From assembly GCA_049521895.1 (NCBI GenBank), contig JBEKOJ010000001.1:162717-226716 (forward strand): a stretch of 64,000 bases of DNA. The letters run 5' to 3'. Origin of the DNA: Candidatus Saccharimonadales bacterium. Lineage in GTDB: Bacteria > Patescibacteriota > Saccharimonadia > Saccharimonadales > UBA10212. The translations under genes and the position numbers were made by a program. Positions 9,078-57,039 of this stretch are shown here, one piece after another (positions within the stretch are counted from its first letter, which is position 1; every line of letters begins with the position of its first letter). The notes below the pieces were generated by a model. The model ran no database searches, was not told where the DNA came from, and saw only the letters and a list, made by a program, of their open reading frames with translations.

Positions 9078-9081
9078 ACAA

Positions 9082-9180
9082 CCATTTTACATTTTTCACT
9101 TGGCATTTGACATTTATTTACCATTGTTAAATGTTCAATGCTAAATTAATGTAAATTGAAAATTGTAAATTGAAAATTCA
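9082..9180. repeat. Low-complexity quasi-palindromic spacer repeat, family A (CATTT/ACC arm and AAATG/TAAATTG arm)
   Basis: The 5' arm ccattttacatttttcacttggcatttgacatttatttaccattg faces the 3' arm caatgctaaattaatgtaaattgaaaattgtaaattgaaaatt. It shares the core GCATTTGACAT with the copies at 28983 and 37111. Confidence 0.6.
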
Positions 9181-9188
9181 GGTCGCGC

Positions 9189-10906: not shown

Positions 10907-10930
10907 ATTATCTCTTGAGCATTATTTTCT

Positions 10931-10958
10931 ATAAAAAGACCTTGGCGATTTACCAAGG
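10931..10958 (-). terminator. Putative intrinsic attenuator hairpin in the rplJ leader
   Basis: The minus strand reads CCTTGG-taaatcg-CCAAGG followed by TCTTTTTAT, about 25 nt upstream of the rplJ ATG. Confidence 0.45.
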
Positions 10959-11094
10959 ACTACAGAAGATGTCTGCACAACAATACATTGCGCGTTAACC
11001 TCGGTAGCAGATTAAGCCCGCTTGTCGCGGGCAGCTACTGTCTTTGGCAATCTAATAGTAGATTAGCACAACCTGCAACTTCTTACAAGTCCTA
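10959..11094 (-). promoter_or_regulatory. Candidate L10(-L12) autoregulatory leader
   Basis: This 188-nt untranslated gap holds nested stems (GTAGC..GCCCGC-gacaa-GCGGGC..GCTAC) upstream of the attenuator. The position matches known rplJ leaders, but identity was not verified. Confidence 0.35.
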
Positions 11095-15381: not shown

Positions 15382-15401
15382 AAGCTCCTTTCGGTCGCTT
15401 T

Positions 15402-15476
15402 AGGAACTAGAAACAAGGAACTAGGAACTAGTTTCAGCGCGATTCGCTTGTTGCTTGTTACTTGTTTCATGTTGCT
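15402..15476. repeat. Low-complexity quasi-palindromic spacer repeat, family B (GGAACTAG arm)
   Basis: The arm aggaactagaaacaaggaactaggaactag (29/30 identical to 26242-26271) faces cttgttgcttgttacttgtttcatgttgc. It fills the nusG-rplK spacer. Confidence 0.65.
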
Positions 15477-15479
15477 CGT

Positions 15480-25287: not shown

Positions 25288-25736
25288 TACTTCATTTCGC
25301 CTTTCCTATTCAAAGATAATGTTTCGGGCGTTTGGGCGCTGTGGTTGTGTTCGCTGCCGGCGTAAACCTTGAGCCGCTTAAGCCGTCCGTCGAGCAGTTT
25401 GTTGTTAGGCAGCATACCTCTAATTGAATCTCTGATTACTTTTGTGGGGTCTAATTTCATTTGTTCGTCCAAGGTGCGCCTGTAAAGCCCGCCCGGAAAA
25501 CCGCTGTGGCGGTAGTAGTGTTTGCCATCAATTTTATTACCCGTTACTACTAATCTGCTAGCGTTGATAATTATCACGAAGTCTCCGCCGTCCATATGGG
25601 CTGTAATAGATGGCTTATCCTTACCAAGCAATAATCTGGCAGCTTGGGTAGAAACGCGGCCCAGAGAAGCCTGTGAAGCGTCCAGAACATACCATTTACG
25701 TGTGATTTCCTTTGGTTTTAGGCTGTATGACTTCAT
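25287..25736 (-). CDS. rplM: 50S ribosomal protein uL13
   Basis: ..KWYVLDASQASLGRVSTQAARLLLGKDKP.. is canonical uL13, and the gene lies upstream of rpsI. Confidence 0.96.
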   Translation of the reverse strand: MKSYSLKPKEITRKWYVLDASQASLGRVSTQAARLLLGKDKPSITAHMDGGDFVIIINASRLVVTGNKIDGKHYYRHSGFPGGLYRRTLDEQMKLDPTKVIRDSIRGMLPNNKLLDGRLKRLKVYAGSEHNHSAQTPETLSLNRKGEMK

Positions 25737-26218
25737 CTTTTTGAGTCCTTAGCTGAGAGCTTAGAGTCCTTAGCTTTAGTTTTAGTGTCCTTTCTTGAAT
25801 TGTTCCTAGCTGGGGACTTTGGACTAGGGACTGAGGACTTCGAAGCTTTAAGCTTCGATAGATCATCCACGAAACTGACTGAGGCCATTTGGGCACCATC
25901 ACCACGGCGCAGAACAGTACGCTTTACTCGCAGATGGCCGCTGTCACGACCGCTTAATTTTGGGACCATATCATCAACCAGCTTATGGGCGGCCTCAAGG
26001 GTAAGCAACCCTCGGATAACCTGGCGGCGGTTATGCAAGCCGCCCGCTTTAGCTTTTGTGATTAGCTTCTCGGTGTAGCTAGATACCTCTTTGGCCTTCG
26101 GCAGGGTAGTTTCAATCGATTCGCGCAGCACCAAAGAATCAGCCAACCCCTTTATTAGAGCTTCGCGCTGGTCGCGCTCGCGGCCGAATTTTTTACCTTT
26201 GTATCCGTGGCGGTGCAT
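25733..26218 (-). CDS. rplQ: 50S ribosomal protein bL17 with K/S-rich C-terminal tail
   Basis: MHRHGYKGKKFGRERDQREALIKGL.. is canonical bL17, and the gene follows rpoA. Confidence 0.95.
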   Translation of the reverse strand: MHRHGYKGKKFGRERDQREALIKGLADSLVLRESIETTLPKAKEVSSYTEKLITKAKAGGLHNRRQVIRGLLTLEAAHKLVDDMVPKLSGRDSGHLRVKRTVLRRGDGAQMASVSFVDDLSKLKASKSSVPSPKSPARNNSRKDTKTKAKDSKLSAKDSKR

Positions 26219-26241
26219 TACGCGCTTCCTCCGGAGGCTAT

Positions 26242-26306
26242 AGGAACTAGGAACAAGGAACTAGGAACTAGTTTTTCCTGTTTCCTGTTTCCTGTTTCCT
26301 GTTTCC
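26242..26306. repeat. Low-complexity quasi-palindromic spacer repeat, family B, with (CCTGTTT)x4
   Basis: The arm aggaactaggaacaaggaactaggaactag is followed by tttttCCTGTTTCCTGTTTCCTGTTTCCTGTTTCC. The arms pair as AGGAA/UUCCU blocks with regular mismatches. Confidence 0.7.
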
Positions 26307-26327
26307 TAAAAATGCTTTGCATTTTTA
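26307..26327. other. A/T hairpin TAAAAATGC-ttt-GCATTTTTA overlapping the rpoA stop codon
   Basis: A perfect 9-bp palindrome. The same hairpin occurs at the rpsH stop (33516-33538). Confidence 0.6.
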
Positions 26328-27906: not shown

Positions 27907-27926
27907 TACAGACCTCCTTCGGAGGT

Positions 27927-28038
27927 AATTATCAATTTACAATTATCAATTCTCAATAATTTAGCATCTGTCATCTGCCATTGATCAAATGAAAAATGTG
28001 AAATTAATGGTAAATGGTAAATGGGATATGGTAAATGG
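27927..28038. repeat. Low-complexity quasi-palindromic spacer repeat, family A (about 85% identical to 34041-34138)
   Basis: Reads attatcaattctcaataatttagcat...gccattgatcaaatgaaaaatgtgaaattaatggtaaatggtaaatgggatatggtaaatgg. Confidence 0.7.
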
Positions 28039-28051
28039 ATGCGCAGCATCA

Positions 28052-28960: not shown

Positions 28961-29083
28961 TTATCATTGAGCATTGATTTAACAGGTAGCATTTGACATT
29001 GTTCGGAATTGCTAAATGAGAAATGAGAAATAAATGGTAAATGTGAATTGGTAAATGTGAATTGGAGCAATTTCATTGCGACT
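28961..29083. repeat. Low-complexity spacer repeat, family A variant
   Basis: Contains aggtagcatttgacattg and aaatgagaaatgagaaataaatggtaaatgtgaattggtaaatgtgaattgg. A tandem atttatcattgagc x2 sits at 28945-28972. Confidence 0.6.
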
Positions 29084-31119: not shown

Positions 31120-31470
31120 TTAAGTTTTGGCGGTTTTTTGCTTGACGCGAGCCAAGCGTCCAACTTCGGTAAAACTGCCACCAGCCTTCCCGGCAGTAGA
31201 GCTTCGAGTGCCAAACGAACCAGACATGGAATTGTAAGAGCTTAACATTCGATTGAGTGATCTTCGTCCGACGCTAGTTTTAAAATAGCCCTCTCGTCGT
31301 TTGGCATCATCAAAGTTAAGATGTGCTTCATAGTAGATTAACTTCCAGTTATTTGGAGATTTAGTAGAGAAGTTTTGGCCAGCATTATGTTCCCTGACTC
31401 TCTTTCGCAGATTATTCGTCCGACCAATGTAACGGTTCGCACCATTCTCTAGTACGTACACGTAATACAT
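31120..31470 (-). CDS. GIY-YIG (URI) domain protein, YhbQ/UPF0213-like
   Basis: MYYVYVLENGANRYIGRTNNLRKRVREHN.. is the GIY..YIG..R..E..N pattern. It lies between rplO and secY. Confidence 0.8.
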   Translation of the reverse strand: MYYVYVLENGANRYIGRTNNLRKRVREHNAGQNFSTKSPNNWKLIYYEAHLNFDDAKRREGYFKTSVGRRSLNRMLSSYNSMSGSFGTRSSTAGKAGGSFTEVGRLARVKQKTAKT

Positions 31471-32873: not shown

Positions 32874-33413
32874 TTATGCCTCCTTACCGCTCTTACCGCT
32901 CTTGCGCAGGATGCGCTCGTCGATATACTTGATACCTTTGCCTTTATAGGGCTCGGGCTTCTTGAGAGCTCGGATTTCGGCGGCTACCTGTCCTACTTGC
33001 TGCTTATTTATGCCTGAAACTGTGATAACGTTCTGTTCTATGCCAATTTGGATGCCAGTTGGTACTTTATATACTACTTCGTGCGAAAATCCAAGATTAA
33101 ACTTTAAATTGATACCAGCTTGCTGCACGCGGTAACCAACGCCGTTAAGCTCCAGCTTCTTTTCAAAACCCTGGCTAACGCCAGCGACCATATTATTGAG
33201 CAGAGCACGCATTAGACCGTGGTTAGCGCGGGTAGCAGCCTGGTTGTCGGCTCGCTCTACTTGCACTAGGCCATTTTTGCTGACCACAGAAATACCGGGA
33301 AGATTAAATTGTTCGAGTTCTCCCTTGGGGCCGGTTACGGTCACAAAATGCTGGTCAGCAGTCACGTTGACACCACCAGGTAATGTAATCGGCATTTTTC
33401 CTATTCGACTCAT
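32874..33413 (-). CDS. rplF: 50S ribosomal protein uL6
   Basis: MSRIGKMPITLPGGVNV.. and ..PEPYKGKGIKY.. are canonical uL6. Confidence 0.96.
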   Translation of the reverse strand: MSRIGKMPITLPGGVNVTADQHFVTVTGPKGELEQFNLPGISVVSKNGLVQVERADNQAATRANHGLMRALLNNMVAGVSQGFEKKLELNGVGYRVQQAGINLKFNLGFSHEVVYKVPTGIQIGIEQNVITVSGINKQQVGQVAAEIRALKKPEPYKGKGIKYIDERILRKSGKSGKEA

Positions 33414-33435
33414 TACGCAACCTCCGGTTGCTTTA

Positions 33436-33515
33436 GTAAAAAGTAAAAAGTAAAAAGTAAAAAGCTAACAGCGGCATATGGTGGCTGCTTGTTGCCTTTT
33501 ACTTGTTGCCTGTTG
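33436..33515. repeat. Low-complexity quasi-palindromic spacer repeat, family C, with (GTAAAAA)x4
   Basis: GTAAAAAGTAAAAAGTAAAAAGTAAAAAgctaacagc faces gctgcttgttgccttttacttgttgcctgttgc. Confidence 0.65.
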
Positions 33516-33538
33516 CTAAAAATGCAAAGCATTTTTAG
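33516..33538. other. A/T hairpin CTAAAAATGC-aaa-GCATTTTTAG overlapping the rpsH stop codon
   Basis: A perfect 10-bp palindrome, the same as at the rpoA stop except the loop is complemented. Confidence 0.6.
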
Positions 33539-33924: not shown

Positions 33925-34040
33925 ACGCACCTCCGGTGCTCAATTTTCAATTTACAATTATATAGCTTCAAGCCAGGCTGGCTTTTATTTTTAAGGCTGG
34001 CCAGCTTGGTTTTGGCATATAATGCTTCCTTATCGGTCAC

Positions 34041-34138
34041 ATTATCAATTTTCAATAATTTAGCATTTAGTAATTGGCCATTGGTAAATGACAAATGAGA
34101 AATTAATGTGAAATGGTAAATGGGATATGGTAAATGGG
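34041..34138. repeat. Low-complexity quasi-palindromic spacer repeat, family A (about 85% identical to 27941-28038)
   Basis: Reads attatcaattttcaataatttagcatttagtaattggccattggtaaatgacaaatgagaaattaatgtgaaatggtaaatgggatatggtaaatggg. Confidence 0.7.
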
Positions 34139-34159
34139 ATGACATAGTCATTTTATCTC

Positions 34160-34429: not shown

Positions 34430-34562
34430 TATTTGCGCCCTCCGGGCTTATGAAGACAACCTACGGTTTTCCTCATCGAACCTTTTGGAATAAATCCAAA
34501 TTCGCCTCGCGAACCGGTTATACTCTTTTCCCTTAGGTTAACTACTACTGTAAATGATTTCA
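34430..34562 (-). promoter_or_regulatory. Structured intercistronic leader upstream of rpsN (paralog of the rplB leader)
   Basis: The minus strand reads TAAGGGAAAAGAG..hairpin..CGATGAGGAAAACCGTAGGTTGTCTTCATAAGCCCGGAGGGCGCAAATAATG. Compare 39349-39460. Confidence 0.45.
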
Positions 34563-35207
34563 TTATTTACTCTTACTTTCAAGTGACTTGTGCTGCCCAT
34601 TCGACGTGCTCAGGGCACTCTGAGGGCTACTCGAAGGGTGAGGTTTCTCGAAAGGCAGGCCAAACTTAGTTAGTAAGGCTTTGGCCTGTTCGGGATTTTG
34701 CGCCTGGATAATAAACGTCACTTGCAATCCATGCGCTGTGGCGGTCTCTTCAAAGCTAAGCTCTGGGAAAACCGACTGGTCTACCAGCCCAAGACTGTAG
34801 CTGCCTTGTTTATCAAATGAACTGGTGCTCACGCCGTGAAAGTCACGCAAGCGGGGCAGGACAATATTGATCAGCCGGTCAGCAAACTCATACATTCTAT
34901 CACCTCTGAGCGTAACTTTCAGCCCTATTTTATTTCCTTCGCGTAACTTAAAGCTGGCGATAGACTTTTTCGCGGTGGTTTCCACGGGTTTTTGGCCAGT
35001 AATTTTAGCCAAAGTGTTGGCTGCCACCTCTAGCAAGCGCTTTTCGTCCTTGGCCTTGCCCACACCTGCACTGACTACAATTTTCTCCAAGCGCGGAGCT
35101 TCATGGATATTTCTGAGCCCGAGCTCGTTTTTAAGCTCGCCAGCCCAAACATCTTTATAGCTGGTGCTCAAACGCGGCTTATAAGCAGGTTTGGTTACGG
35201 TAGCCAT
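34563..35207 (-). CDS. rplE: 50S ribosomal protein uL5 with about 35-aa C-terminal tail
   Basis: ..LRNIHEAPRLEKIVVSAGVGKA.. and ..LRGDRMYEFADRLINIVLPRLRDFHG.. are canonical uL5. Confidence 0.95.
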   Translation of the reverse strand: MATVTKPAYKPRLSTSYKDVWAGELKNELGLRNIHEAPRLEKIVVSAGVGKAKDEKRLLEVAANTLAKITGQKPVETTAKKSIASFKLREGNKIGLKVTLRGDRMYEFADRLINIVLPRLRDFHGVSTSSFDKQGSYSLGLVDQSVFPELSFEETATAHGLQVTFIIQAQNPEQAKALLTKFGLPFEKPHPSSSPQSALSTSNGQHKSLESKSK

Positions 35208-35230
35208 TAGACGCTCCCTTTAGTCGCTTT

Positions 35231-35305
35231 AGGTGACAGGTTGTAGGTTGTAGGTGACAGTTTAGTTACAGTTTTTGTAACCTGTAACCTGTAACCTGTA
35301 ACCTG
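35231..35305. repeat. Low-complexity quasi-palindromic spacer repeat, family D, with (GTAACCT)x4
   Basis: aggtgacaggttgtaggttgtaggtgacag faces GTAACCTGTAACCTGTAACCTGTAACCT. The arms pair as AGGU/ACCU blocks on the mRNA strand. Confidence 0.65.
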
Positions 35306-35326
35306 ATGATGAGTGGAACGAATCAT

Positions 35327-35692
35327 CTACTTTAGCTCCTTGCCACTCGTTTTGAGTACACGCACTTTGGCGCCATCTTTGATTAATTTGTAGCCGATAC
35401 GCGACGGTTTCTTGGCGACACTATCCAGTAGACCGAGTTTGCTTACCCAAATAGGCTTGGTAATTTCAATGATGCCGCCCTGCGGATGCTGGGGCGTGGG
35501 TTTACGATGTTTTTTGACGACGTTGATGCCCTCGACTGTAACTTTGTTGAGTTTAGGATAAACAGCCAGCACTTTACCGCTACGGCCCTTGTGCTTACCA
35601 GAGCGTACCATTACCATATCACCGGTCTTTAGCCGAATCTTATAGATTCGGCCAGCTCTTAGCTTAGAGCTCTTAGCTGTTGGCTTATTCAT
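35327..35692 (-). CDS. rplX: 50S ribosomal protein uL24
   Basis: The KOW motif ..[21 protein letters not shown].. is present, and the gene has an ATGA overlap with rplN. Confidence 0.93.
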
Positions 35693-37052: not shown

Positions 37053-37071
37053 AACAGAGTTCCTTCGGGGC

Positions 37072-37185
37072 TATTTACCATTGACCATTTGCCATTTTCC
37101 AGTGATTTACCAGGTAGCATTTGCCATTGGTTAGATAAAAAATCAGCAATAAATGTTAAATGTAAATTGTTAAATGTAAATTGGA
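37072..37185. repeat. Low-complexity quasi-palindromic spacer repeat, family A (inverted orientation)
   Basis: tatttaccattgaccatttgccattttccagtgatttaccaggtagcatttgccattgg faces caataaatgttaaatgtaaattgttaaatgtaaattgg. Confidence 0.65.
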
Positions 37186-37200
37186 ATGACGGAGTCATGA

Positions 37201-38514: not shown

Positions 38515-39348
38515 TTATCTCCTCTTCCCCTGGTGGCGGGTTCTTACGATAAACTTACTGCTAATATTGCGGCGGCGGGTTTTATACCCAAGGGTTTTCT
38601 GGCCCCAAGGTGTCCGGGGGTCTTTTTCAGTACCGTGCTTACCCTCGCCACCACCATGCGGATGGTCAGCGGCGGCCATGACTACACCGCGGACCGTTGG
38701 CCTGATACCCATGTGACGCTTGCGGCCGGCCTTGCCGATTTGGATATTTTGATGCTGCTCATTGCCCACGGTGCCAACAGAGGCCATACAGTCAACGTGT
38801 ATCATTCTAATTTCTCCACTAGGTAATCGCACTTGGGCATATTTTTCTTCTTTTGCTATAAGTTGTGCGCCGGCCCCGGCGGTGCGGGCCAGTTGGGCGC
38901 CCCGGCCTGGCTGAAGCTCAATAGCATGTATAGTTGTACCAGTTGGGATGTTTTTAATTGGCAAGCGGTTGCCCCGTTCGATGGAGGCTTCTTCGCTCAC
39001 ATTGACCTTTCGGCCAACTCGCATCCCTTTGGCGGCTAAGACGTAGTGGTGGTTGCCATCTTGGTCAATGACTCTGGCAATTCTAGCGCTACGGTTGGGG
39101 TCGTATTCTATATGTTCAATGGTCGCGCTTGTACCCACGGACGGCTTAAAATTAACCATGCGGTAATACCGTCTGGCGCCGGCGCCGCGATGACGGGTGG
39201 TAATTCGCCCCTGGTTATTGCGGCCCACAGAACCTTTTTTAATGCGAATTAGGCTGCGCAGCGGTTTATCGGTAGAAATGCCAGCAAAATCCTGGCTGCT
39301 CATGCCGCGGCGACTTGGAGTTGTAGGTTTGTAAGCTTTAACGGCCAT
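38515..39348 (-). CDS. rplB: 50S ribosomal protein uL2
   Basis: MAVKAYKPTTPSRRGMS.. and ..HPHGGGEGK.. are canonical uL2. I chose the ATG at 39348. Confidence 0.96.
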   Translation of the reverse strand: MAVKAYKPTTPSRRGMSSQDFAGISTDKPLRSLIRIKKGSVGRNNQGRITTRHRGAGARRYYRMVNFKPSVGTSATIEHIEYDPNRSARIARVIDQDGNHHYVLAAKGMRVGRKVNVSEEASIERGNRLPIKNIPTGTTIHAIELQPGRGAQLARTAGAGAQLIAKEEKYAQVRLPSGEIRMIHVDCMASVGTVGNEQHQNIQIGKAGRKRHMGIRPTVRGVVMAAADHPHGGGEGKHGTEKDPRTPWGQKTLGYKTRRRNISSKFIVRTRHQGKRR

Positions 39349-39460
39349 TATTTGCGCCTCCGGCTTATAAGACAAACCTGGCGGTTTTTCTCATCGCGCC
39401 GGCAAAATAAAATACATTTTGTCGGGCTGCTCTTTTCCCTATAGCTATTCAGCTGCATCA
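39349..39460 (-). promoter_or_regulatory. Structured intercistronic leader upstream of rplB (paralog of the rpsN leader)
   Basis: The minus strand reads TATAGGGAAAAGAG..CCGACAAAAT-gtatttt-ATTTTGCCGG..CGATGAGAAAAACCGCCAGGTTTGTCTTATAAGCCGGAGGCGCAAATAATG. Confidence 0.45.
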
Positions 39461-39802
39461 TTATTTCTTCCCCTTAGTTTCTGGTTTAGTCTCGGGCTCT
39501 TCGACAGCGGCAAAAATCGGCAGCTTATCGCCTTCTTTCAGGACGACGTAAGCTTTGCGGAAGTCAGAACGCCGCGCTCTATGCGACACCCGGCCTCCAC
39601 GGCGGTATGTTCTTTTAGTCTTAGCGGGCGCACCAGTGATGCGTACTTTTATAACCGAGACACTGTATTGTTTGGCTACGGCATCTGCTACGCTAAGGCT
39701 GTTTACTCCGCTCGGGACTTCGAATAGATAGGTATTGAGCTCCTCGCTTAGGGAATAGGCTTTTTCGCTCAGACGCGGTTTAAGCACGACCGATTTATTC
39801 AT
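39461..39802 (-). CDS. rplW: 50S ribosomal protein uL23
   Basis: ..VLKPRLSEKAYSLSEELNTYLFEVPSGVNSLSVADAV.. is uL23, and the gene sits between rplD and rplB. Confidence 0.92.
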   Translation of the reverse strand: MNKSVVLKPRLSEKAYSLSEELNTYLFEVPSGVNSLSVADAVAKQYSVSVIKVRITGAPAKTKRTYRRGGRVSHRARRSDFRKAYVVLKEGDKLPIFAAVEEPETKPETKGKK

Positions 39803-41177: not shown

Positions 41178-41444
41178 TTAGTGGAGGGTCAGCACCAGGC
41201 CGATCGGCACCCAGAAGCCAACAAACATTGCCACCAGCAGCAGTGCGTATTCAATTTTACGGTCAATCCTAAAATGGTCGTGGGCCGCAAATAGCAAGCC
41301 CAGCAATGCGCCGTAAGGTATTGGAATTTGGGCACCGGTCTTGGTTTCTATCTTGAACCACTGCGAGCCAACTATTAGATACAGCACCAGTTTCAGAATA
41401 TATAAGCTGTCTGGTTCTTGCTTGGCCGTTTTGTTGTTTGCCAT
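41178..41444 (-). CDS. Small membrane protein (88 aa, 3 predicted TM), unknown function
   Basis: Has hydrophobic segments LYILKLVLYLIVG, YGALLGLLFAA and ALLLVAMFVGFWVPIGLVL. It starts 16 nt after the aminopeptidase stop. Confidence 0.6.
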   Translation of the reverse strand: MANNKTAKQEPDSLYILKLVLYLIVGSQWFKIETKTGAQIPIPYGALLGLLFAAHDHFRIDRKIEYALLLVAMFVGFWVPIGLVLTLH

Positions 41445-41460
41445 AAGAATTAATATAGCA

Positions 41461-42672
41461 CTAAACAGTAAACTGACCGTTCTTATAGATCACTTCTTGA
41501 CTGCCATCAGACAATGTAGCGGTAACAATCCGATCGGTAGTAGAAATCATATCAACGTGAATAGCTGACTCGTTATAGCCTAACTTTTTCGATAGCGACG
41601 GAGTCATTTTCTTTGTATCGCCATCGAATGTATCGTGATAGCTTTTACCAACCGCTAGGTGGGTATTGCCAAACCGGCCGCCCATATTTTCGTCAAACAG
41701 CGTTTCAGCCATAAATTTGGTGATATGGCTCAGGCGCCTATCAGTCAATGAGAATTCGCCGATTTGTGACGCACCGTCATCCGTAGCTAGCATTTCCCGC
41801 AAGAGTTTCTGATTTTTGCTGGCTGTGGCTCTAACTACCCGACCCACCTTAAAAGTAAGCTCTATGTCCTGGACGCGCGGGCCATAGTAATACAGTGGTT
41901 GGTTAAAGCGGATCCGGCCTTCCGTACCATGCCAATCCGGTGAGGTAAAGACCTCAAAGCTTGGTATATTGCGTCCGCCACCACCCAACCATTTGCGCTT
42001 CTTTCCCATTGTTATATGCAAATCGACGTCTTTGCCAACCACATGCAGTTTATCTATTCGCAGTCTGGTAAGCCTTGTTGCTACGCGCTGGACTTCTTTG
42101 CTGGTCTTGCGCCACTCGGCGATCGGATCAGATTTGTCTAAGTAACAGGCTTTTATTATTTGACGCCAATGGCCTTTCTCGCTAAGCCCAGCCTCTTTGG
42201 CCATACTTGGCGTGCCGTAAAGAGCCAGAGTCCATGTGTATTTGCCAATGTTTTCTTTGTCGTTAAGCCAATCGGCGAGAGGTTTGGCGCTCTTTTGGGT
42301 GAGCATTATCTTTTTTGGATCTATTTTGTCCAGTTCATGTACATCATGTTCAGCGATTACGGCAATACGGTGGTCAACTTGCTCAACTAGTCCCTTGAAG
42401 TACTTGTCGAGAAATGCAACCAGCTGCTGGTGATTAGCGTGTTCGTAAAAGTATTTTGCAGCGCCGGACATATCGTCCGCCAGACCATTAATAAGAATCC
42501 CGCCGCTATCTATGATATTTTTTCGCAAAGCCCGATAAAAAGGCAGAGCCGACAGTGGCGATTGCAAAAAAACCACCTCCCCGGGCTTGATACCGCTGCC
42601 ACCACCCAGCGCAAAATTTACCAAAACCTTGGCATACTTATCAAGAATCTCTTCTGGGGGCGTATAGCTCAT
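41461..42672 (-). CDS. M29 family aminopeptidase (AmpS/PepS-like)
   Basis: 403 aa. The N-terminus ..LDKYAKVLVNFALGGGSGIKPGEVVFL.. and ..FDENMGGRFGNTHLAVGKSY.. resemble aminopeptidase T/S. Confidence 0.8.
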   Translation of the reverse strand: MSYTPPEEILDKYAKVLVNFALGGGSGIKPGEVVFLQSPLSALPFYRALRKNIIDSGGILINGLADDMSGAAKYFYEHANHQQLVAFLDKYFKGLVEQVDHRIAVIAEHDVHELDKIDPKKIMLTQKSAKPLADWLNDKENIGKYTWTLALYGTPSMAKEAGLSEKGHWRQIIKACYLDKSDPIAEWRKTSKEVQRVATRLTRLRIDKLHVVGKDVDLHITMGKKRKWLGGGGRNIPSFEVFTSPDWHGTEGRIRFNQPLYYYGPRVQDIELTFKVGRVVRATASKNQKLLREMLATDDGASQIGEFSLTDRRLSHITKFMAETLFDENMGGRFGNTHLAVGKSYHDTFDGDTKKMTPSLSKKLGYNESAIHVDMISTTDRIVTATLSDGSQEVIYKNGQFTV

Positions 42673-42741: not shown

Positions 42742-43071
42742 TCACATCTTGATTTCGGCGTCACAGCCTGCCGGTAAAGACAGGTTCATAAGACTGTCTA
42801 TAGTCTTCGGTGTAGGGTCGGAAATGTCTATCAGGCGTTTATGTACGCGCATCTCAAACTGCTCCCTGCCCTTTTTATAAATATGCGGGCTTTTGATGAC
42901 CGTAAAGGTGCTTTTGCGGGTTGGCAGAGGGATCGGCCCGGCAATTTTAGCGCCGGTGCGCAGAGCGGTCTCTACAATCTGTTTAGCAGACTGGTCAATG
43001 ACCTTGTGGTCATAGGCCTTAAGACGGATTCTAATCCGCTGCTTCACTTCGGGTTCTTTAGTCTCTGCCAT
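42742..43071 (-). CDS. rpsJ: 30S ribosomal protein uS10
   Basis: ..[33 protein letters not shown].. is canonical uS10. Confidence 0.97.
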
Positions 43072-43277
43072 TACTCTTCCTCGTCATCCATAGCGCCCCA
43101 GGCTGCTTCGAATTCTTCGGCCTGACGCATCCTATATGACAGGGTTCCGGGGGTATTTGCCAAAGTTTCGGCCATGGAGCTAACTATCCCGCTTTTAAGC
43201 GTTGGGTCATCGACTGTTATGCCTGCCTCTTCAAGGACAAGGTCCACAAGCTGCTGATCAAACTCAGGACTAGACAT
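43071..43277 (-). CDS. Small acidic protein (68 aa) translationally coupled between tuf and rpsJ
   Basis: Its ATG overlaps the tuf stop (TAATG) and its stop overlaps the rpsJ ATG (TAATG). It has an acidic C-terminus ..AMDDEEE, and I recognised no family. Confidence 0.6.
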
Positions 43278-47081: not shown

Positions 47082-47384
47082 TTATGCCTCTACCATCTCT
47101 AGTCTCCAGCAATCTTGCTCGATGACAAATTGGCAAGTACCATCAACGGCTGCCTTTGCGCGCTTCTCTAGTTCGTTTTCGGCTCTGTGTTGGTCTCTCT
47201 GTGGCGAGCATAATTCCCTGCCAGGGGAGCCCTCTATGTCAAGTCCGACCGCTTCCGCTACGCTAGACGCCCTTAGGACCATACAGCCGACACATTTAAC
47301 GGGGGTTAGATATCCTCTGCCAAATCTGTCTAACCAGGTGATATCTCTGGCGTGATCCGAATTGATTTCACTAGTCCGAGCCAT
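47082..47384 (-). CDS. Small Cys-containing protein (100 aa) filling the rpsG-fusA gap
   Basis: Its ATG lies 2 nt after the rpsG stop and its stop lies 2 nt before the fusA ATG. It contains CxxC (KCVGC) plus three more Cys, and I recognised no family. Confidence 0.5.
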   Translation of the reverse strand: MARTSEINSDHARDITWLDRFGRGYLTPVKCVGCMVLRASSVAEAVGLDIEGSPGRELCSPQRDQHRAENELEKRAKAAVDGTCQFVIEQDCWRLEMVEA

Positions 47385-47385
47385 A

Positions 47386-47865
47386 TTATCCCCGGGCAAA
47401 ATGGGCGAAAGCACGGTTGGCCTCGGCCATGCGGTGTGTATCTTCTTTTTTCTTAACTGCTTCGCCGGTATTGTTGTAAGCGTCAACCAGTTCAGCGGCG
47501 ATACGATCTTGCATGCTAATGCCGCTGCGGGCACGGGCGGCCGCTACGAACCACATGGTGGTCAGGTGTTGCTGGCGTTGGCTCTTAACCTCAAAGGGGA
47601 TCTGATAATTAGCGCCGCCAACCCGGCGGGAGCGGGTTTCCATATAAGGCTGGATGTTTTTTATGGCTTGCTCGAAAACTTCCAGCGGGTTTTGGACCTT
47701 GAGTTTATCGGCGGCTTTTTGCATACCGCCATAAACTAACCCTTCAGCAACTTGCTTCTTGCCATTCAGCATTACCCGATTGATAAGCTTAGCAACCTGG
47801 GTGCTGTTGTACATACGATCCGGTGCGGCTGGCCGAATCAAGGCTTTAGTGGTCTTACGCGGCAT
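47386..47865 (-). CDS. rpsG: 30S ribosomal protein uS7
   Basis: MPRKTTKALIRPAAPDRMYNSTQVAKLINRVMLNGKKQVAE.. is canonical uS7. I chose the ATG at 47865. Confidence 0.96.
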   Translation of the reverse strand: MPRKTTKALIRPAAPDRMYNSTQVAKLINRVMLNGKKQVAEGLVYGGMQKAADKLKVQNPLEVFEQAIKNIQPYMETRSRRVGGANYQIPFEVKSQRQQHLTTMWFVAAARARSGISMQDRIAAELVDAYNNTGEAVKKKEDTHRMAEANRAFAHFARG

Positions 47866-47882
47866 TAGCAATCTCCGATTGC

Positions 47883-47966
47883 GGTATGGGGTATGGGGTA
47901 TAAGGTATAAGGTATTTATCGTCCACGACTCCATACTTAATACCTGATACTTGATACGAAATACCC
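47883..47966. repeat. Low-complexity quasi-palindromic spacer repeat, family E (GGTATGG/GGTATAA arm)
   Basis: ggtatggggtatggggtataaggtataaggtattta faces ccatacttaatacctgatacttgatacgaaataccc. Confidence 0.65.
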
Positions 47967-47968
47967 AT

Positions 47969-48379
47969 CTATTTGGCCTTCTTGGCGCCGTACTTACTGC
48001 GGCCCTGCTTGCGATTTTCTACTCCCTGAAGGTCGAGATTGCCACGGACGACATGATAACGCACCCCTGGTAAATCTTTTACCCGACCGCCTCTTACCAG
48101 AACTACGGCGTGTTCTTGTAGGTTATGGCCTTCACCACCGATGTAAGCCCAGACTTCATGGCCATTGGTCAAGCGCACACGGGCAACTTTACGTAACGCT
48201 GAGTTTGGTTTCTTAGGTGTTTTTGTAGTTACGCGTACACAAACGCCACGCTTAAATGGCGAGTGCTTTTCGTAATTTATAGTTTTAAGATTGTTAGTAA
48301 CACGATCAAGAGCCGGTGAACCCGGCTTTTTAGTTACCTTCTTGCGTGGCTTGCGTATTAATTGGCTAATAGTTGGCAT
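47969..48379 (-). CDS. rpsL: 30S ribosomal protein uS12
   Basis: [14 protein letters not shown].. and ..[36 protein letters not shown].. are canonical uS12. Confidence 0.98.
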
Positions 48380-56802: not shown

Positions 56803-56810
56803 GCATATAG

Positions 56811-56838
56811 TTTATAAAAATTAGCACTCGTAAGTCAA
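56811..56838 (-). promoter_or_regulatory. clpP promoter TTGACT-N16-TATAAA, 8 nt from the ATG
   Basis: The minus strand reads cTTGACTtacgagtgctaattttTATAAActatatgcATG. The -35 box and spacer lie inside the CIRCE palindrome. Confidence 0.5.
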
Positions 56839-56847
56839 GAGTGCCAA
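56821..56847. promoter_or_regulatory. CIRCE-like inverted repeat (HrcA operator) TTAGCACTC-N9-GAGTGCCAA
   Basis: Matches 17 of 18 arm positions of the CIRCE consensus TTAGCACTC-N9-GAGTGCTAA, with exact 9-nt spacing. Confidence 0.65.
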
Positions 56848-56999
56848 CACATGTTGCAGATAGGGTTGGTCTGGGTAGGTTTAGCTTGTTTGATTTTTCC
56901 GAAGCCCTGAGCGAGATGTATCCGTTGATACATTGAGCTGGACTGGAGGAAAAAGCAGCAAGATAAGCCTGTTCCAGGCAGGCCTAGCGGTGATATGTG

Positions 57000-57030
57000 T
57001 TAGTACTCTTGGCTTGGTCAAGAGTGCCAA
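57000..57030. repeat. Degenerate second copy of the CIRCE-like element (13-nt spacer)
   Basis: TTAGTACTC-ttggcttggtcaa-GAGTGCCAA shares the exact 14-mer GTCAAGAGTGCCAA with 56834-56847. It lies directly after the tig stop. Confidence 0.45.
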
Positions 57031-57039
57031 TTTAATCGG

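Follow-up and report, generated by a model that had tools for sequence, protein, structure and literature searches.

Several kinds of small repeat are known to be carried within or between bacterial genes. The Rickettsia palindromic elements (RPE; Ogata et al. 2000) are reported to be palindromic repeats of about 100-150 nt that are dispersed in a reduced genome, sit inside protein-coding genes, and are tolerated because they stay in frame and are translated. Co-transcribed, MITE-like intergenic palindromes include the Correia elements of Neisseria, the enterobacterial ERIC, and REP/BIME/REPIN; they are small, non-autonomous, imperfect palindromes, occur in many copies between co-transcribed genes, fold into mRNA hairpins, and show presence/absence polymorphism. 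Among these, REP/REPIN (PMC3116915) are 20-40-nt palindromes with a conserved GTAG or CGTC head that are linked to a RAYT gene. Heptanucleotide tandem repeats form another group, comprising the cyanobacterial STRR, the heptamer long simple-sequence repeats, and the TAACTGA repeats found upstream of start codons in Beggiatoaceae, including ribosomal-protein operons (PMC4679880, PMC4692102); these are single direct arrays of one fixed unit per lineage with a patchy phylogenetic distribution, in which inverted arrangements are occasionally noted. Small dispersed repeats within heptamer repeats have reportedly been treated in Nostoc (Elhai et al. 2008). Finally, termination-reinitiation at overlapping stop/start codons is the classical basis of translational coupling (PMC6728339, PMC12548453).

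Here, a 64-kb stretch of DNA (the window) from a peat Saccharibacteria (TM7, Candidate Phyla Radiation (CPR)) genome was analysed. An initial annotation had described short heptamer arrays facing their imperfect complements in the rpsH/rplF, rplX/rplE and rpsL/rpsG spacers (families C, D and E). The three spacers appear to be copies of a family of insertion elements of about 100-150 nt, and the literature search found nothing on such elements in Saccharibacteria or CPR. As in the RPEs, the elements are palindromic repeats of similar size dispersed in a reduced genome, they keep a reading frame open, and some copies are fused in frame to S17 (in the comparison loci L111, L128 and L172) or to L17 (in the window); on the other hand, most copies sit exactly at stop/start junctions as separate mini-ORFs and bring their own Shine-Dalgarno (SD) sequence, the arms are heptamer arrays with AG/CT anchors, and the phylum is different. 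With the Correia, ERIC and REP-type elements they share small size, imperfect palindromy, location between co-transcribed genes and presence/absence differences. However, they have no terminal inverted repeats of the Correia/ERIC type and no GTAG/CGTC head, their hairpins span about 70-90 nt, their arms are tandem heptamers, each carries start, SD and stop signals and an open frame, and no RAYT or transposase link is known. Similarly to the heptamer repeats, they consist of 7-nt units in intergenic DNA, often just upstream of start codons and inside ribosomal-protein operons, but a 5' array always faces a roughly complementary 3' array, the unit varies between copies under a CTN5/N5AG rule, and the arrays are embedded between conserved modules inside a mini-ORF. 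With regard to coupling, the empty junctions are classical TAATG/ATGA overlaps, which both ends of each element reproduce, whereas the interposition of an inferred relay ORF of 34-51 codons, apparently by an insertion, has not been described in the papers found.

Position and architecture of families C, D and E

The observation of three array/complement pairs was confirmed by exact string positions. (GTAAAAA)x4 lies at 33436-33463 and its partner gcttgttgccttttacttgttgcctgttgc at 33487-33516, 23 nt apart; aggtgacaggttgtaggttgtaggtgacag lies at 35231-35260 and (GTAACCT)x4 at 35277-35304, 16 nt apart; and ggtatggggtatggggtataaggtataagg lies at 47883-47912 and ccatacttaatacctgatacttgatac at 47931-47957, 18 nt apart. 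The flanking genes are on the minus strand and encode S8/L6, L24/L5 and S12/S7, as had been named. Each element lies between the upstream stop and the downstream start, and it includes the SD (GGAGG 33421-33425, GGGAG 35214-35218 and GGAG 47873-47876) rather than ending before it, as the initial annotation had placed it. In addition, the rpsG start is 47863-47865, so that the rpsL/rpsG spacer is 47866-47968. Period 7 is the only over-represented repeat period in the window: TRF gave 24 period-7 rows in 64 kb, against at most 4 for any other single period except 14, and 38 period-7 rows in 885 kb of unrelated control loci. Perfect arrays of at least three copies numbered three at period 7 and none at any other period from 4 to 12, and block shuffles gave 0.0 at period 7. 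The complementarity of the two arms within an element (median alignment score 26) exceeded that of cross-element pairings (12) and of chance pattern hits (14).

The family C element is the whole 121-nt insert at 33414-33534 (minus strand), between the rpsH stop (33535-33537) and the rplF ATG (33411-33413). Its 5' mini-hairpin, CUAAAAAUGC-UUU-GCAUUUUUAG (33516-33538, local fold -9.3 kcal/mol), contains the rpsH stop codon and the mini-ORF AUG (33530-33532), and the same module, AAATGC-N3/4-GCATTTT(T)AG, occurs at rpoA/rplQ, in L117 and twice in L153. The 5' arm (33486-33516), which in mRNA sense consists of the units GCAACAG, GCAACAA, GTAAAAG and GCAACAA, is an imperfect complement of the 3' arm (33436-33463), (CTTTTTA)x4 in mRNA sense; a perfect complement (TAAAAAG)n would contain TAA, and the units carry CAA instead. 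The 3' arm fits the general (CTN5)n formula and is in phase with the following CTAAAGC, which opens the 3' module (33414-33436); this is followed by the SD mini-hairpin GCAACCGGAGGTTGC (33417-33431, -7.9 kcal/mol) and by TA, which forms TAATG with the rplF start. The mini-ORF (33413-33532) has 39 codons, MLCIFSNRQQVKGNKQPPYAAVSFLLFTFYFLLKQPEVA, its stop TAA overlaps the rplF ATG, and it has no Pfam match.

Similarly, the family D element is the whole 119-nt insert at 35208-35326 (minus strand), between the rplX stop and the rplE ATG (35205-35207). Its 5' module (35306-35326) is the ATGATTCGTTCCACTCATCAT hairpin that holds the AUG, and the 5' arm (35277-35304), (AGGTTAC)x4 in mRNA sense, equals (N5AG)n in phase with CATCAG of this module. 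The 3' arm (35231-35260) reads CTGTCAC, CTACAAC, CTACAAC and CTGTCAC, where a perfect complement CTGTAAC would carry TAA. The 3' module CTAAAGCGACTAAAGGGAGCGTCTA (35208-35232) contains the SD, and its TA forms TAATG with the ATG. The mini-ORF (35207-35326) has 39 codons, MIRSTHHQVTGYRLQVTKTVTKLSPTTYNLSPKATKGSV, starts directly after the rplX TAG and has a stop that overlaps the rplE ATG; related peptides are called as genes elsewhere. The family E element is the 103-nt insert at 47866-47968 (minus strand), between the rpsL stop (47969-47971) and the rpsG ATG, with its 5' arm at 47931-47957, its 3' arm at 47883-47912 and its SD mini-hairpin GCAATCGGAGATTGC at 47868-47882. Its 37-codon mini-ORF (47855-47968), MGISYQVSGIKYGVVDDKYLIPYTPYPIPQSEIANAA, starts directly after the rpsL TAG and ends 11 nt inside rpsG.

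These elements share one formula in mRNA sense: a mini-hairpin of 5-10 bp that contains the upstream stop codon and an AUG, a 5' arm of 3-5 heptamers N5AG, an apical loop of 11-28 nt, a 3' arm of 3-5 heptamers CTN5 in strict phase with a terminal CTAAAGC, an SD that often lies inside a CCNCC-GRA-GGNGG mini-hairpin (in families C and E among the three), and a stop codon that overlaps the downstream start (TAATG or ATGA). Positions 1-2 of the 3' arm units are C in 92% and T in 90%, and positions 6-7 of the 5' arm units are A in 100% and G in 93%; the AG:CU step is essentially always paired (32/32 and 30/32 cells), whereas unit position 3 is mostly mismatched and the N5 differs between copies. 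Folding against dinucleotide shuffles, which had been proposed beforehand as a check, gave a modest excess on the mRNA strand, with z = -2.6/-2.7 (C), -3.9/-3.5 (D) and -2.5/-2.8 (E), summarized as -2.7 to -3.5. The z-score was also negative for the rpoA/rplQ element, while two heptamer spacers showed no excess (z +0.07 and +0.6). The arms are about 77% complementary, the mRNA strand is the weaker-folding strand, and some family members (L091, L106) have arms that cannot pair.

A frame is kept open through these inserts. Of 20 elements tested, 19 have one fully open sense frame running from the upstream stop to the downstream start (20 open frames in all), against 4 antisense and about 5.6 expected, although the copies are related and the count overstates independence; the other sense frames carry 1-10 stops. 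Starts fall within -3 to +3 nt of the upstream stop in most elements (outliers at -6 and +10), and stops overlap the downstream start in most. The K-A-T frame is open for at least 90 nt in 16 of 21 Saccharibacteria-like copies, against 3 of 21 for the next frame. In 11 of 42 arrays a perfectly regular array would give an in-frame stop, and the deviant unit sits exactly there. By contrast, freedom from stops in all three frames was not significant (11 of 24 sense against 6 of 24 antisense arrays, with 0.56 expected); the signal lies in one specific frame. A minority of elements lack a spanning ORF (9078-9188 in the window, L108, L101/L123, L127 and the GC-rich phage-context copies).

Related elements, empty junctions and strain differences

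Further elements of this kind occur on the minus strand of the window. The element at rpoA/rplQ (26219-26324) has a family C-type 5' module, (GGAAACA)4, a (CTAGTTC)-type arm and a 34-codon mini-ORF, and that at nusG/rplK (15382-15479) has a 5' arm like family C, a 3' arm like rpoA/rplQ, and the 3' module CTAAAGCGACCGAAAGGAG. The rpsK/rpsD element (27907-28051) is of CCATTTA / AATTGAT type, with a 48-codon mini-ORF and the SD hairpin ACCTCCGAAGGAGGT. Heptamer elements also lie at rpmJ/rpsM (28961-29083), at rpsN/rpsH (33925-34159; double-length, with one open sense frame of about 80 codons) and at rpsC/rplP (37053-37200; 50-codon mini-ORF), where a related element sits at the same junction in L013. 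The element at 9078-9188, between a 170-aa ORF and dnaX, is the only one of the 20 tested without an open sense frame. At 25733-25865, an element with AGTCCYN / AAGGACT arrays is fused in frame to the 3' end of rplQ: the L17 domain ends at residue 117 of 161, and the ORF ends in ATGA on the rplM start. A non-heptamer family is represented at rplW/rplB (39346-39466; 35-codon mini-ORF) and by a second copy at rplE/rpsN (34430-34562; 44-codon mini-ORF), both bounded by AAATAATG. The inserts measure 98-235 nt.

At orthologous junctions, empty sites were found in L079, L081, L075, L191, L192 and L193. At rplX/rplE and rpsH/rplF, the closest relatives (L5 77-86% identical) have TAATG/TAAATG junctions or spacers of 2-21 nt: the rplX/rplE site is a stop/start overlap or a directly abutting stop and start in L079, L081, L191, L192 and L193, and relatives have 2, 9, 9 and 21 nt at rpsH/rplF. 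At rpsL/rpsG, the relative L153 has two different elements. Loci L001-L007 of the same species are 100% identical to the window and carry no information on variation, but strain L197, which is 98-99.3% identical, lacks the rplW/rplB non-heptamer element, a 113-nt insertion made up of 105 nt plus the 8-nt direct repeat AAATAATG (39459-39466 and 39346-39353). ATG, AATG or TAATG occur at both ends of the other elements; however, these bases and AAATAATG are also what the coupled ORF needs and cannot be told apart from true target-site duplications, and the L197 difference could be a deletion between the repeats. Between strains, 22 differences were counted in 706 nt of elements against 17 in 4676 nt of genes, that is, the elements evolve about 8 times faster than the flanking genes, and L197 has the same T>C change at 35294 and 35301, 7 nt apart within the family D array.

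The families are also dispersed. Family D occurs at rplW/rplB and rplV/rpsC in L013/L096, upstream of a predicted rfbA-like (thymidylyltransferase) gene in L105 and of rplT in L177 (gene names read from N-terminal sequences), and a second time in this same genome, between a hypothetical gene and a Lactamase_B_3 gene (L194). A metagenome scan with the 3' module gave 35 unique heptamer-bearing copies at junctions before genes whose N-termini read as rplB, rpsC, rplN, rpsI, rpsM, rplT, atpG, rfbA, rfbC, pilC and pilT, with names assigned by eye and not by a profile search; as these copies were selected through one 3' module, the formula may be narrower than the whole phenomenon. Completely different repeat units, including AGGTTAC, CAGGACA, AGCCAAA, GTAGGGA, AGGGTCA and others, recur in the same architecture, as the initial annotation had predicted. 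A search of viral contigs with the 3' module gave a single hit, on a contig of 21,750 nt that is probably the same as a metagenome hit of that length. A profile search with the mini-ORF peptides returned only 11 called proteins and served mainly to find L194 and L197.

Origin and possible role of the elements

Based on the results presented above, the interpretation of the initial annotation, that the hairpins are a selected structural feature of the polycistronic mRNA rather than a sequence-specific binding site, is only partly supported. The architecture is real, folds better than shuffles and recurs with different units, but it is not a conserved feature of the operon mRNA; there is a sequence-specific component in the AG and CT dinucleotides every 7 nt (90-100% conserved) and in the 5' and 3' modules; and each of the three presumed spacers is spanned by a mini-ORF. 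With moderate confidence, families C, D and E are best read as three copies of a dispersed superfamily of small, non-autonomous, MITE/RPE-like insertion elements that occupy stop/start junctions of co-transcribed genes and preserve translational coupling. The anatomy of the elements was shown directly in the sequences, whereas translation of the mini-ORFs, which rests on open frames only, the mode of mobility and the following mechanism are inferred. In this view, the ancestral junction was a coupled stop/start overlap with the SD inside the upstream gene, and insertion would duplicate or re-create that junction at both ends of the element. A ribosome finishing the upstream gene would restart at the AUG of the element, translate the mini-ORF of 34-51 codons and in doing so melt the heptamer hairpin and the SD hairpin, then terminate on the downstream start and reinitiate there, and the insert would therefore be nearly neutral for operon expression. 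The heptamer hairpin with its AG:CU steps would most likely be the element's own determinant, for propagation or for recognition by an unknown protein, rather than a host-selected mRNA structure. The complement is only approximate, which would be partly through decay and partly because a perfect complement would place stop codons in the mini-ORF; arrays change by whole-unit conversion or slippage. Small size, absence of an own transposase gene, dispersed copies and presence/absence polymorphism agree with a MITE. On the other hand, the inverted repeat is the internal pair of arms rather than terminal inverted repeats matching a parent IS element, the outermost 5' and 3' modules are not complementary, and no transposase or other mobilising gene was identified in the sequence read (about 64 kb plus a few flanks of the 770-kb contig). 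A GIY-YIG gene co-occurs with the elements in the window and in L075 (93% identical) and is absent from the element-free L082, but three genomes are too few to conclude anything about it as a mobiliser.

A host-selected mRNA structure, for example a barrier to 3' exonucleases or an RNase III-type processing site that sets segmental mRNA stability, with the small terminal hairpins protecting the new ends, is unlikely but is not excluded, since the hairpins still fold better than shuffles, recur with different units, are strictly placed between stop and start, and are accompanied by AUG and SD mini-hairpins that could cap processed ends. Against this stand the absence of the elements from the same junctions in the closest relatives, the absence of the non-heptamer sister element from a nearly identical strain, the fast evolution, the weaker folding of the mRNA strand, the two spacers without excess, the 126 transversion-type mismatches and unpairable arms, and the AG/CT anchors, which a mere hairpin does not need. 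An antisense RNA as the selected strand was also considered, because the plus strand folds better and A.C mismatches outnumber G.U by 56 to 14 on the mRNA strand; however, transversion-type mismatches, which hurt both strands, are commonest, and the asymmetry is better explained by a G-poor, stop-avoiding sense strand (TAA to CAA), so that this was rejected as the main explanation. It is improbable that the arrays are only local microsatellites that arise in place by replication slippage, with inverted arrays formed by local duplication and with no mobility and no function. Heptamers are the over-represented class of long simple repeats in many prokaryotes, with slippage proposed as the cause (Mrazek 2007, as summarised in PMC4679880 and PMC4692102), and unit-level conversion is seen between strains, but whole elements, including the non-repetitive modules, recur at non-orthologous junctions and in different genomes, the insert size is discrete at about 100-150 nt, the anchors and their phase with CTAAAGC are conserved, and a frame is kept open.

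The remaining readings are very unlikely. In E. coli, S8 acts near the rplE start and S7 in the rpsL-rpsG spacer, so that two of the three junctions coincide with classical feedback sites. However, Rfam searches at gathering thresholds and at E up to 1 matched only the L10 leader at 10923-11065, with nothing in 25000-48500 apart from one chance snoRNA hit; moreover, the junctions are empty in relatives and the same families occur in operons whose downstream genes read as rfb, pil and atp genes and next to a metallo-hydrolase gene, and autoregulatory binding sites are thereby largely refuted. Genuine small-protein genes would agree with the start and stop in coupling position, with the calling of some mini-ORFs as genes, and with the conserved N-terminal MI(R/H)xxHHQ and C-terminal PKATxGS motifs, but the middle of the peptide changes completely with the heptamer unit, the conserved peptide ends coincide with the conserved nucleotide modules (AUG hairpin, SD), no Pfam match was found, and in some copies the same DNA is fused to S17 or L17. 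Intrinsic terminators or attenuators, suggested by the U-rich (CUUUUUA)4 arm of family C after a stem, are the least likely, since the terminator scan found nothing on the gene strand at the three spacers and a total at background (29 against 26.2), families D and E have no U tract, and the elements lie inside essential operons and are spanned by an ORF; a promoter scan was also at background.

A more far-reaching possibility, which remains tentative, is that these are a previously undescribed class of translation-transparent mobile elements that specifically target the stop/start overlaps of operons and duplicate the TAATG junction, so that they would be born as coupled relay ORFs. Their arms would be built and maintained by a heptamer-register recognition system (AG every 7 nt facing CT every 7 nt), read by an unknown nuclease or recombinase or by an RNA-binding protein, and the same 3' module next to heptamer hairpins in GC-rich Mu-like prophage contexts would mean that the system crosses phyla. 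The register is a clear sequence rule without a known reader, which could represent a new recombinase or RNA-binding activity. CPR/Saccharibacteria genomes are about 1 Mb and tightly packed, yet the most highly expressed and most conserved operons here carry more than ten inserts of 100-235 nt; the coupled mini-ORF gives a concrete, testable reason for their tolerance, and it would be a new way for selfish DNA to be neutral. The presence or absence of elements could serve as strain markers for uncultured Saccharibacteria. With respect to annotation, the inserts create spurious hypothetical proteins of 38-76 aa, false N- or C-terminal extensions (L17, S17, possibly L5 and L24) and wrong start codons (rplB, rpsG), and they may also break assemblies of these lineages, as the contigs of the closest relatives here are only 1.8-4.4 kb.

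Heptamer arrays and folding of the spacers

On the minus strand, the window carries rpoB-rpoC-rpsL-rpsG-fusA-tuf-rpsJ and the S10/spc/alpha ribosomal-protein operons, from which L30 is absent. In a species-level collection, the nearest genomes are Candidatus Saccharibacteria/Saccharimonadales metagenome-assembled genomes, at 69-76% L2 identity, and identical DNA occurs in several peat metagenomes on a contig of 769,618 nt. The initial annotation described heptamer tandem arrays facing approximate complements in three spacers of these operons (families C, D and E, at rpsH/rplF, rplX/rplE and rpsL/rpsG), and this observation is confirmed, as all six strings are present exactly where they had been placed. 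Period 7 dominates the tandem repeats, with 24 Tandem Repeats Finder (TRF) rows in 64 kb compared to 38 in 885 kb of unrelated control loci. In addition, perfect arrays of at least 3 copies exist only at period 7, and none appear in block shuffles.

Folding against dinucleotide shuffles, which had been proposed beforehand as a test of the structural reading, showed that the three spacers fold better than shuffled sequences on the mRNA strand (z about -2.5 to -3.9), and that they fold still better on the opposite strand. Across all spacers longer than 60 nt, the heptamer spacers average about z = -2, whereas two of them (rpmJ/rpsM and rpsC/rplP) show no excess. The 71-nt rplN/rplX spacer (35618-35688), which may instead be an N-terminal extension of L24, since the gene calls disagree, folds well (z -3.65), contains AGCTAAGAGCT repeats plus the hairpin GGCCGAATC..GATTCGGCT, and has 6 differences in 71 nt from L197, a strain 98-99.3% identical to the window. 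The spacer upstream of clpP (56803-57039) is strongly structured (z -6.0 sense, -8.7 antisense) and has two CIRCE-like inverted repeats, TTGGCACTC-N9-GAGTGCTAA and a degenerate copy, which points to HrcA control of clpP. On the other hand, the 249-nt gap between rpsG and the longest fusA ORF (47137-47385) has no repeats and no folding excess (z +0.4), and it may be an unannotated N-terminal extension or a small ORF.

Filled and empty junctions and dispersed copies

By comparing the window with syntenic loci at graded distance, obtained through L5 homologues, the occupancy of the same junctions in relatives could be examined. At rplX/rplE, where the window has the 119-nt family D element, the stop overlaps or directly abuts the start in the relatives L191 (86% L5 identity), L192, L193, L079 and L081 (TAATG in L191, TAAATG in L079 and L081), and the loci L075-L078 carry a different 127-nt heptamer element (CAATTAT/AATTGTA). 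At rpsH/rplF, where the window has the 121-nt family C element, the spacers of L081, L075, L079 and L191 are 2, 9, 9 and 21 nt, respectively. In the empty sites, the Shine-Dalgarno (SD) sequence for the downstream gene lies inside the 3' end of the upstream gene. In the filled sites, that SD now precedes an AUG at the start of the insert, and the insert supplies a new SD for the downstream gene.

Strain L197 lacks a 113-nt element at rplW/rplB (39346-39466 in the window), and this insert is bounded by the 8-nt direct repeat AAATAATG, which is the stop/start overlap itself. The element belongs to a second, non-heptamer sister family of junction inserts (ATAGGGAAAAGAGCAGCC...CGATGAGRAAAACCGCCAGGTT...CATAAGCC..GGAG), also spanned by coupled mini-ORFs, which is present as well at rplE/rpsN in the window (34430-34562) and twice in L079 (4925-5048 and 7541-7664). 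Its presence at rplW/rplB moves the true rplB start to 39346-39348. A relative, L192, carries at rplE/rpsN an inserted 57-aa acidic ORF (MARETYSGGWDEIMADL..., L192 1650-1823) with TAATG overlaps at both ends; it is not repeat-derived, which shows that these junctions accept other coupled inserts. In L153, a relative with S12 84% identical, the rpsL/rpsG junction (L153 12537-12790) holds two tandem elements, the second of which follows the first five codons of rpsG (ATGCCGCGTAAGAC), and a new start GTGCCTAGAAAAACT re-encodes the same residues with different codons.

The elements form dispersed families. Family D, with (AGGTTAC)4, a CTGTCAC/CTACAAC-type arm and CTAAAGCGAC..GGAG, occurs at rplW/rplB and rplV/rpsC in the GTDB genome PFEG01000053 (L013), and in two further loci upstream of a predicted rfbA-like gene (L105) and of rplT (L177), these gene names being read from the N-terminal sequences. 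It occurs a second time in this very genome, about 500 kb away, between a hypothetical gene and a Lactamase_B_3 gene, and that copy is 85% identical over 123 nt. Similarly, the family C 5' module (AAATGC-N3/4-GCATTTT(T)AG) recurs at rpoA/rplQ in the window, in the locus L117 and twice in L153, and the arms of the nusG/rplK element combine a family-C-like 5' arm with the rpoA/rplQ 3' arm. A metagenome scan with the degenerate 3' module returned 107 loci, of which 35 unique ones carry heptamer arrays immediately upstream, and 38 are array-free chance matches that served as controls. The downstream genes, identified by eye from their N-termini, include ribosomal-protein, atp, rfb and pil genes on contigs of Saccharibacteria-like GC content. 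A few copies lie in GC-rich Mu-like prophage contexts: in the metagenome loci L138, L144, L150, L166 and L107 (GC 0.61-0.69), the same 3' module CTAAAGCGACTGAAAGGAG, preceded by near-perfect (CTN5)n hairpins, occurs in front of phage genes (Mu Gam, Mu gp36 and a Dit-like tail protein) without mini-ORFs. The element type may cross phyla or be carried by phages.

Repeat register and reading frames of the elements

When the copies were aligned by their conserved modules, a common formula emerged. The 3' arm is (CTN5)x3-5 in phase with the terminal CTAAAGC, with C at 92% and T at 90% at unit positions 1-2 and the other positions variable, and the 5' arm is (N5AG)x3-5 in phase with CATCAG, with A at 100% and G at 93%. 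In the hairpin, the AG:CU step is essentially always paired (32/32 and 30/32 cells), whereas unit position 3 is mostly mismatched. Family C fits this rule, as (CTTTTTA)4 + CTAAAGC. The unit differs between copies but is homogeneous within an array, and between strains the same substitution appears in two adjacent units (35294 and 35301), which indicates unit-level conversion or slippage.

In 19 of 20 elements (from the window, L013, L075 and L079), one sense frame is completely open across the insert, while the other sense frames carry 1-10 stops. Only 4 elements have an open antisense frame, and shuffles predict about 5.6 open frames per strand. In most elements, the frame starts at an ATG within -3 to +3 nt of the upstream stop and ends at a stop overlapping the downstream start. 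For the three flagged elements, all on the minus strand, the family C mini-ORF (33413-33532) has 39 codons and its TAA overlaps the rplF ATG; the family D mini-ORF (35207-35326) has 39 codons and its TAA overlaps the rplE ATG; and the family E mini-ORF (47855-47968) has 37 codons and ends 11 nt inside rpsG. In the metagenome set, the same frame, reading ..PKATxGS over the 3' module, is open for at least 90 nt in 16 of 21 Saccharibacteria-like copies, compared to 3 of 21 for the next frame.

Some copies are fused in frame to a neighboring gene. In three copies (the loci L111, L128 and L172), the element is fused to the end of S17. In the window (25733-25865), one is fused to L17: the L17 ORF is 161 aa, but the L17 domain ends at residue 117, and the C-terminal 44 residues are encoded by a heptamer element (AGTCCYN / AAGGACT arrays) ending in ATGA on the rplM start. 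In addition, L5 is 214 aa here, against 183-200 aa in all relatives, and the family model ends at residue 188; the C-terminal extension of about 26 aa at the 3' end of rplE (34563-34640) may be another absorbed insert.

In 11 of 42 arrays, a perfectly regular array would put a stop in the frame, and the deviant unit sits exactly there, as in CTAGTTC CTAGTTC CTTGTTC. This also explains part of the approximate complement, since the exact complements of AGGTTAC and CTTTTTA contain TAA, whereas the actual arms carry TCA or CAA, and it explains why A.C mismatches outnumber G.U by 56 to 14 on the mRNA strand. Most elements place the AUG in a small hairpin together with the upstream stop, and the SD in a CCNCC-GRA-GGNGG hairpin; these are the classical ingredients of coupling by unmasking.

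Origin of the elements and neighboring features

Based on the results presented above, the data fit small non-autonomous insertion elements that colonize operon junctions and are tolerated because they relay ribosomes. The arrays, modules and open frames are read directly from the sequences, whereas translation of the mini-ORFs, the relay of ribosomes and the mechanism of spread are inferred. Mobility is supported by the empty sites, by a strain-level indel with a direct repeat, and by within-genome and between-genome dispersal, although no mobilizing enzyme, parent element or unambiguous target duplication was found. It should be borne in mind that all data are metagenomic, that the copies are not independent, and that the large set was ascertained through one 3' module. 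The proposal of the initial annotation, that the hairpins are a selected structural feature of the polycistronic mRNA rather than a sequence-specific binding site, is only partly supported. A host function for the hairpin, as a stabilizer or processing site, is not excluded, but it is weakened by the absence of the elements from close relatives, by their divergence, which is about 8-fold faster than that of genes, by the mRNA strand being the weaker-folding strand, and by some copies whose arms cannot pair. Terminators, known RNA families and ribosomal-protein operators are not supported; in the window, the only known cis-regulatory RNA found is the Rfam L10 leader upstream of rplJ (10923-11065, 55.9 bits).

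In their inferred mode of action, the elements work like MITE, Correia, ERIC and REP elements, which are co-transcribed palindromic repeats, and like Rickettsia palindromic elements, which are tolerated because they stay in frame. They share the 7-nt unit with cyanobacterial STRR, with heptamer simple-sequence repeats and with the TAACTGA repeats of Beggiatoaceae. However, they fail defining features of each of these, as they have no terminal inverted repeats or REP heads, are not located inside genes, and are not single fixed-unit arrays. No paper in the literature searched describes them in Saccharibacteria or CPR. Among small palindromic repeat elements, their unusual and testable properties are junction targeting, a relay mini-ORF and an AG/CT heptamer register.

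A 116-aa GIY-YIG (T5orf172-like) nuclease gene sits between rplO and secY (31120-31470). The same gene, 93% identical, is at the same place in L075, which also has heptamer elements, and it is absent from the element-free relative L082. It is more conserved than L5 (82%), and it may be a mobile gene or a helper, although three genomes are too few to tell. The S10 operon is also unusually interrupted, in that an M29 aminopeptidase gene plus an 88-aa ORF lie between rpsJ and rplC (41178-42672), and a 68-aa ORF lies between tuf and rpsJ (43071-43277). The M29 gene and the 88-aa ORF are conserved in L079 and L081, and a 69-aa ORF occupies the tuf-rpsJ position in L081.
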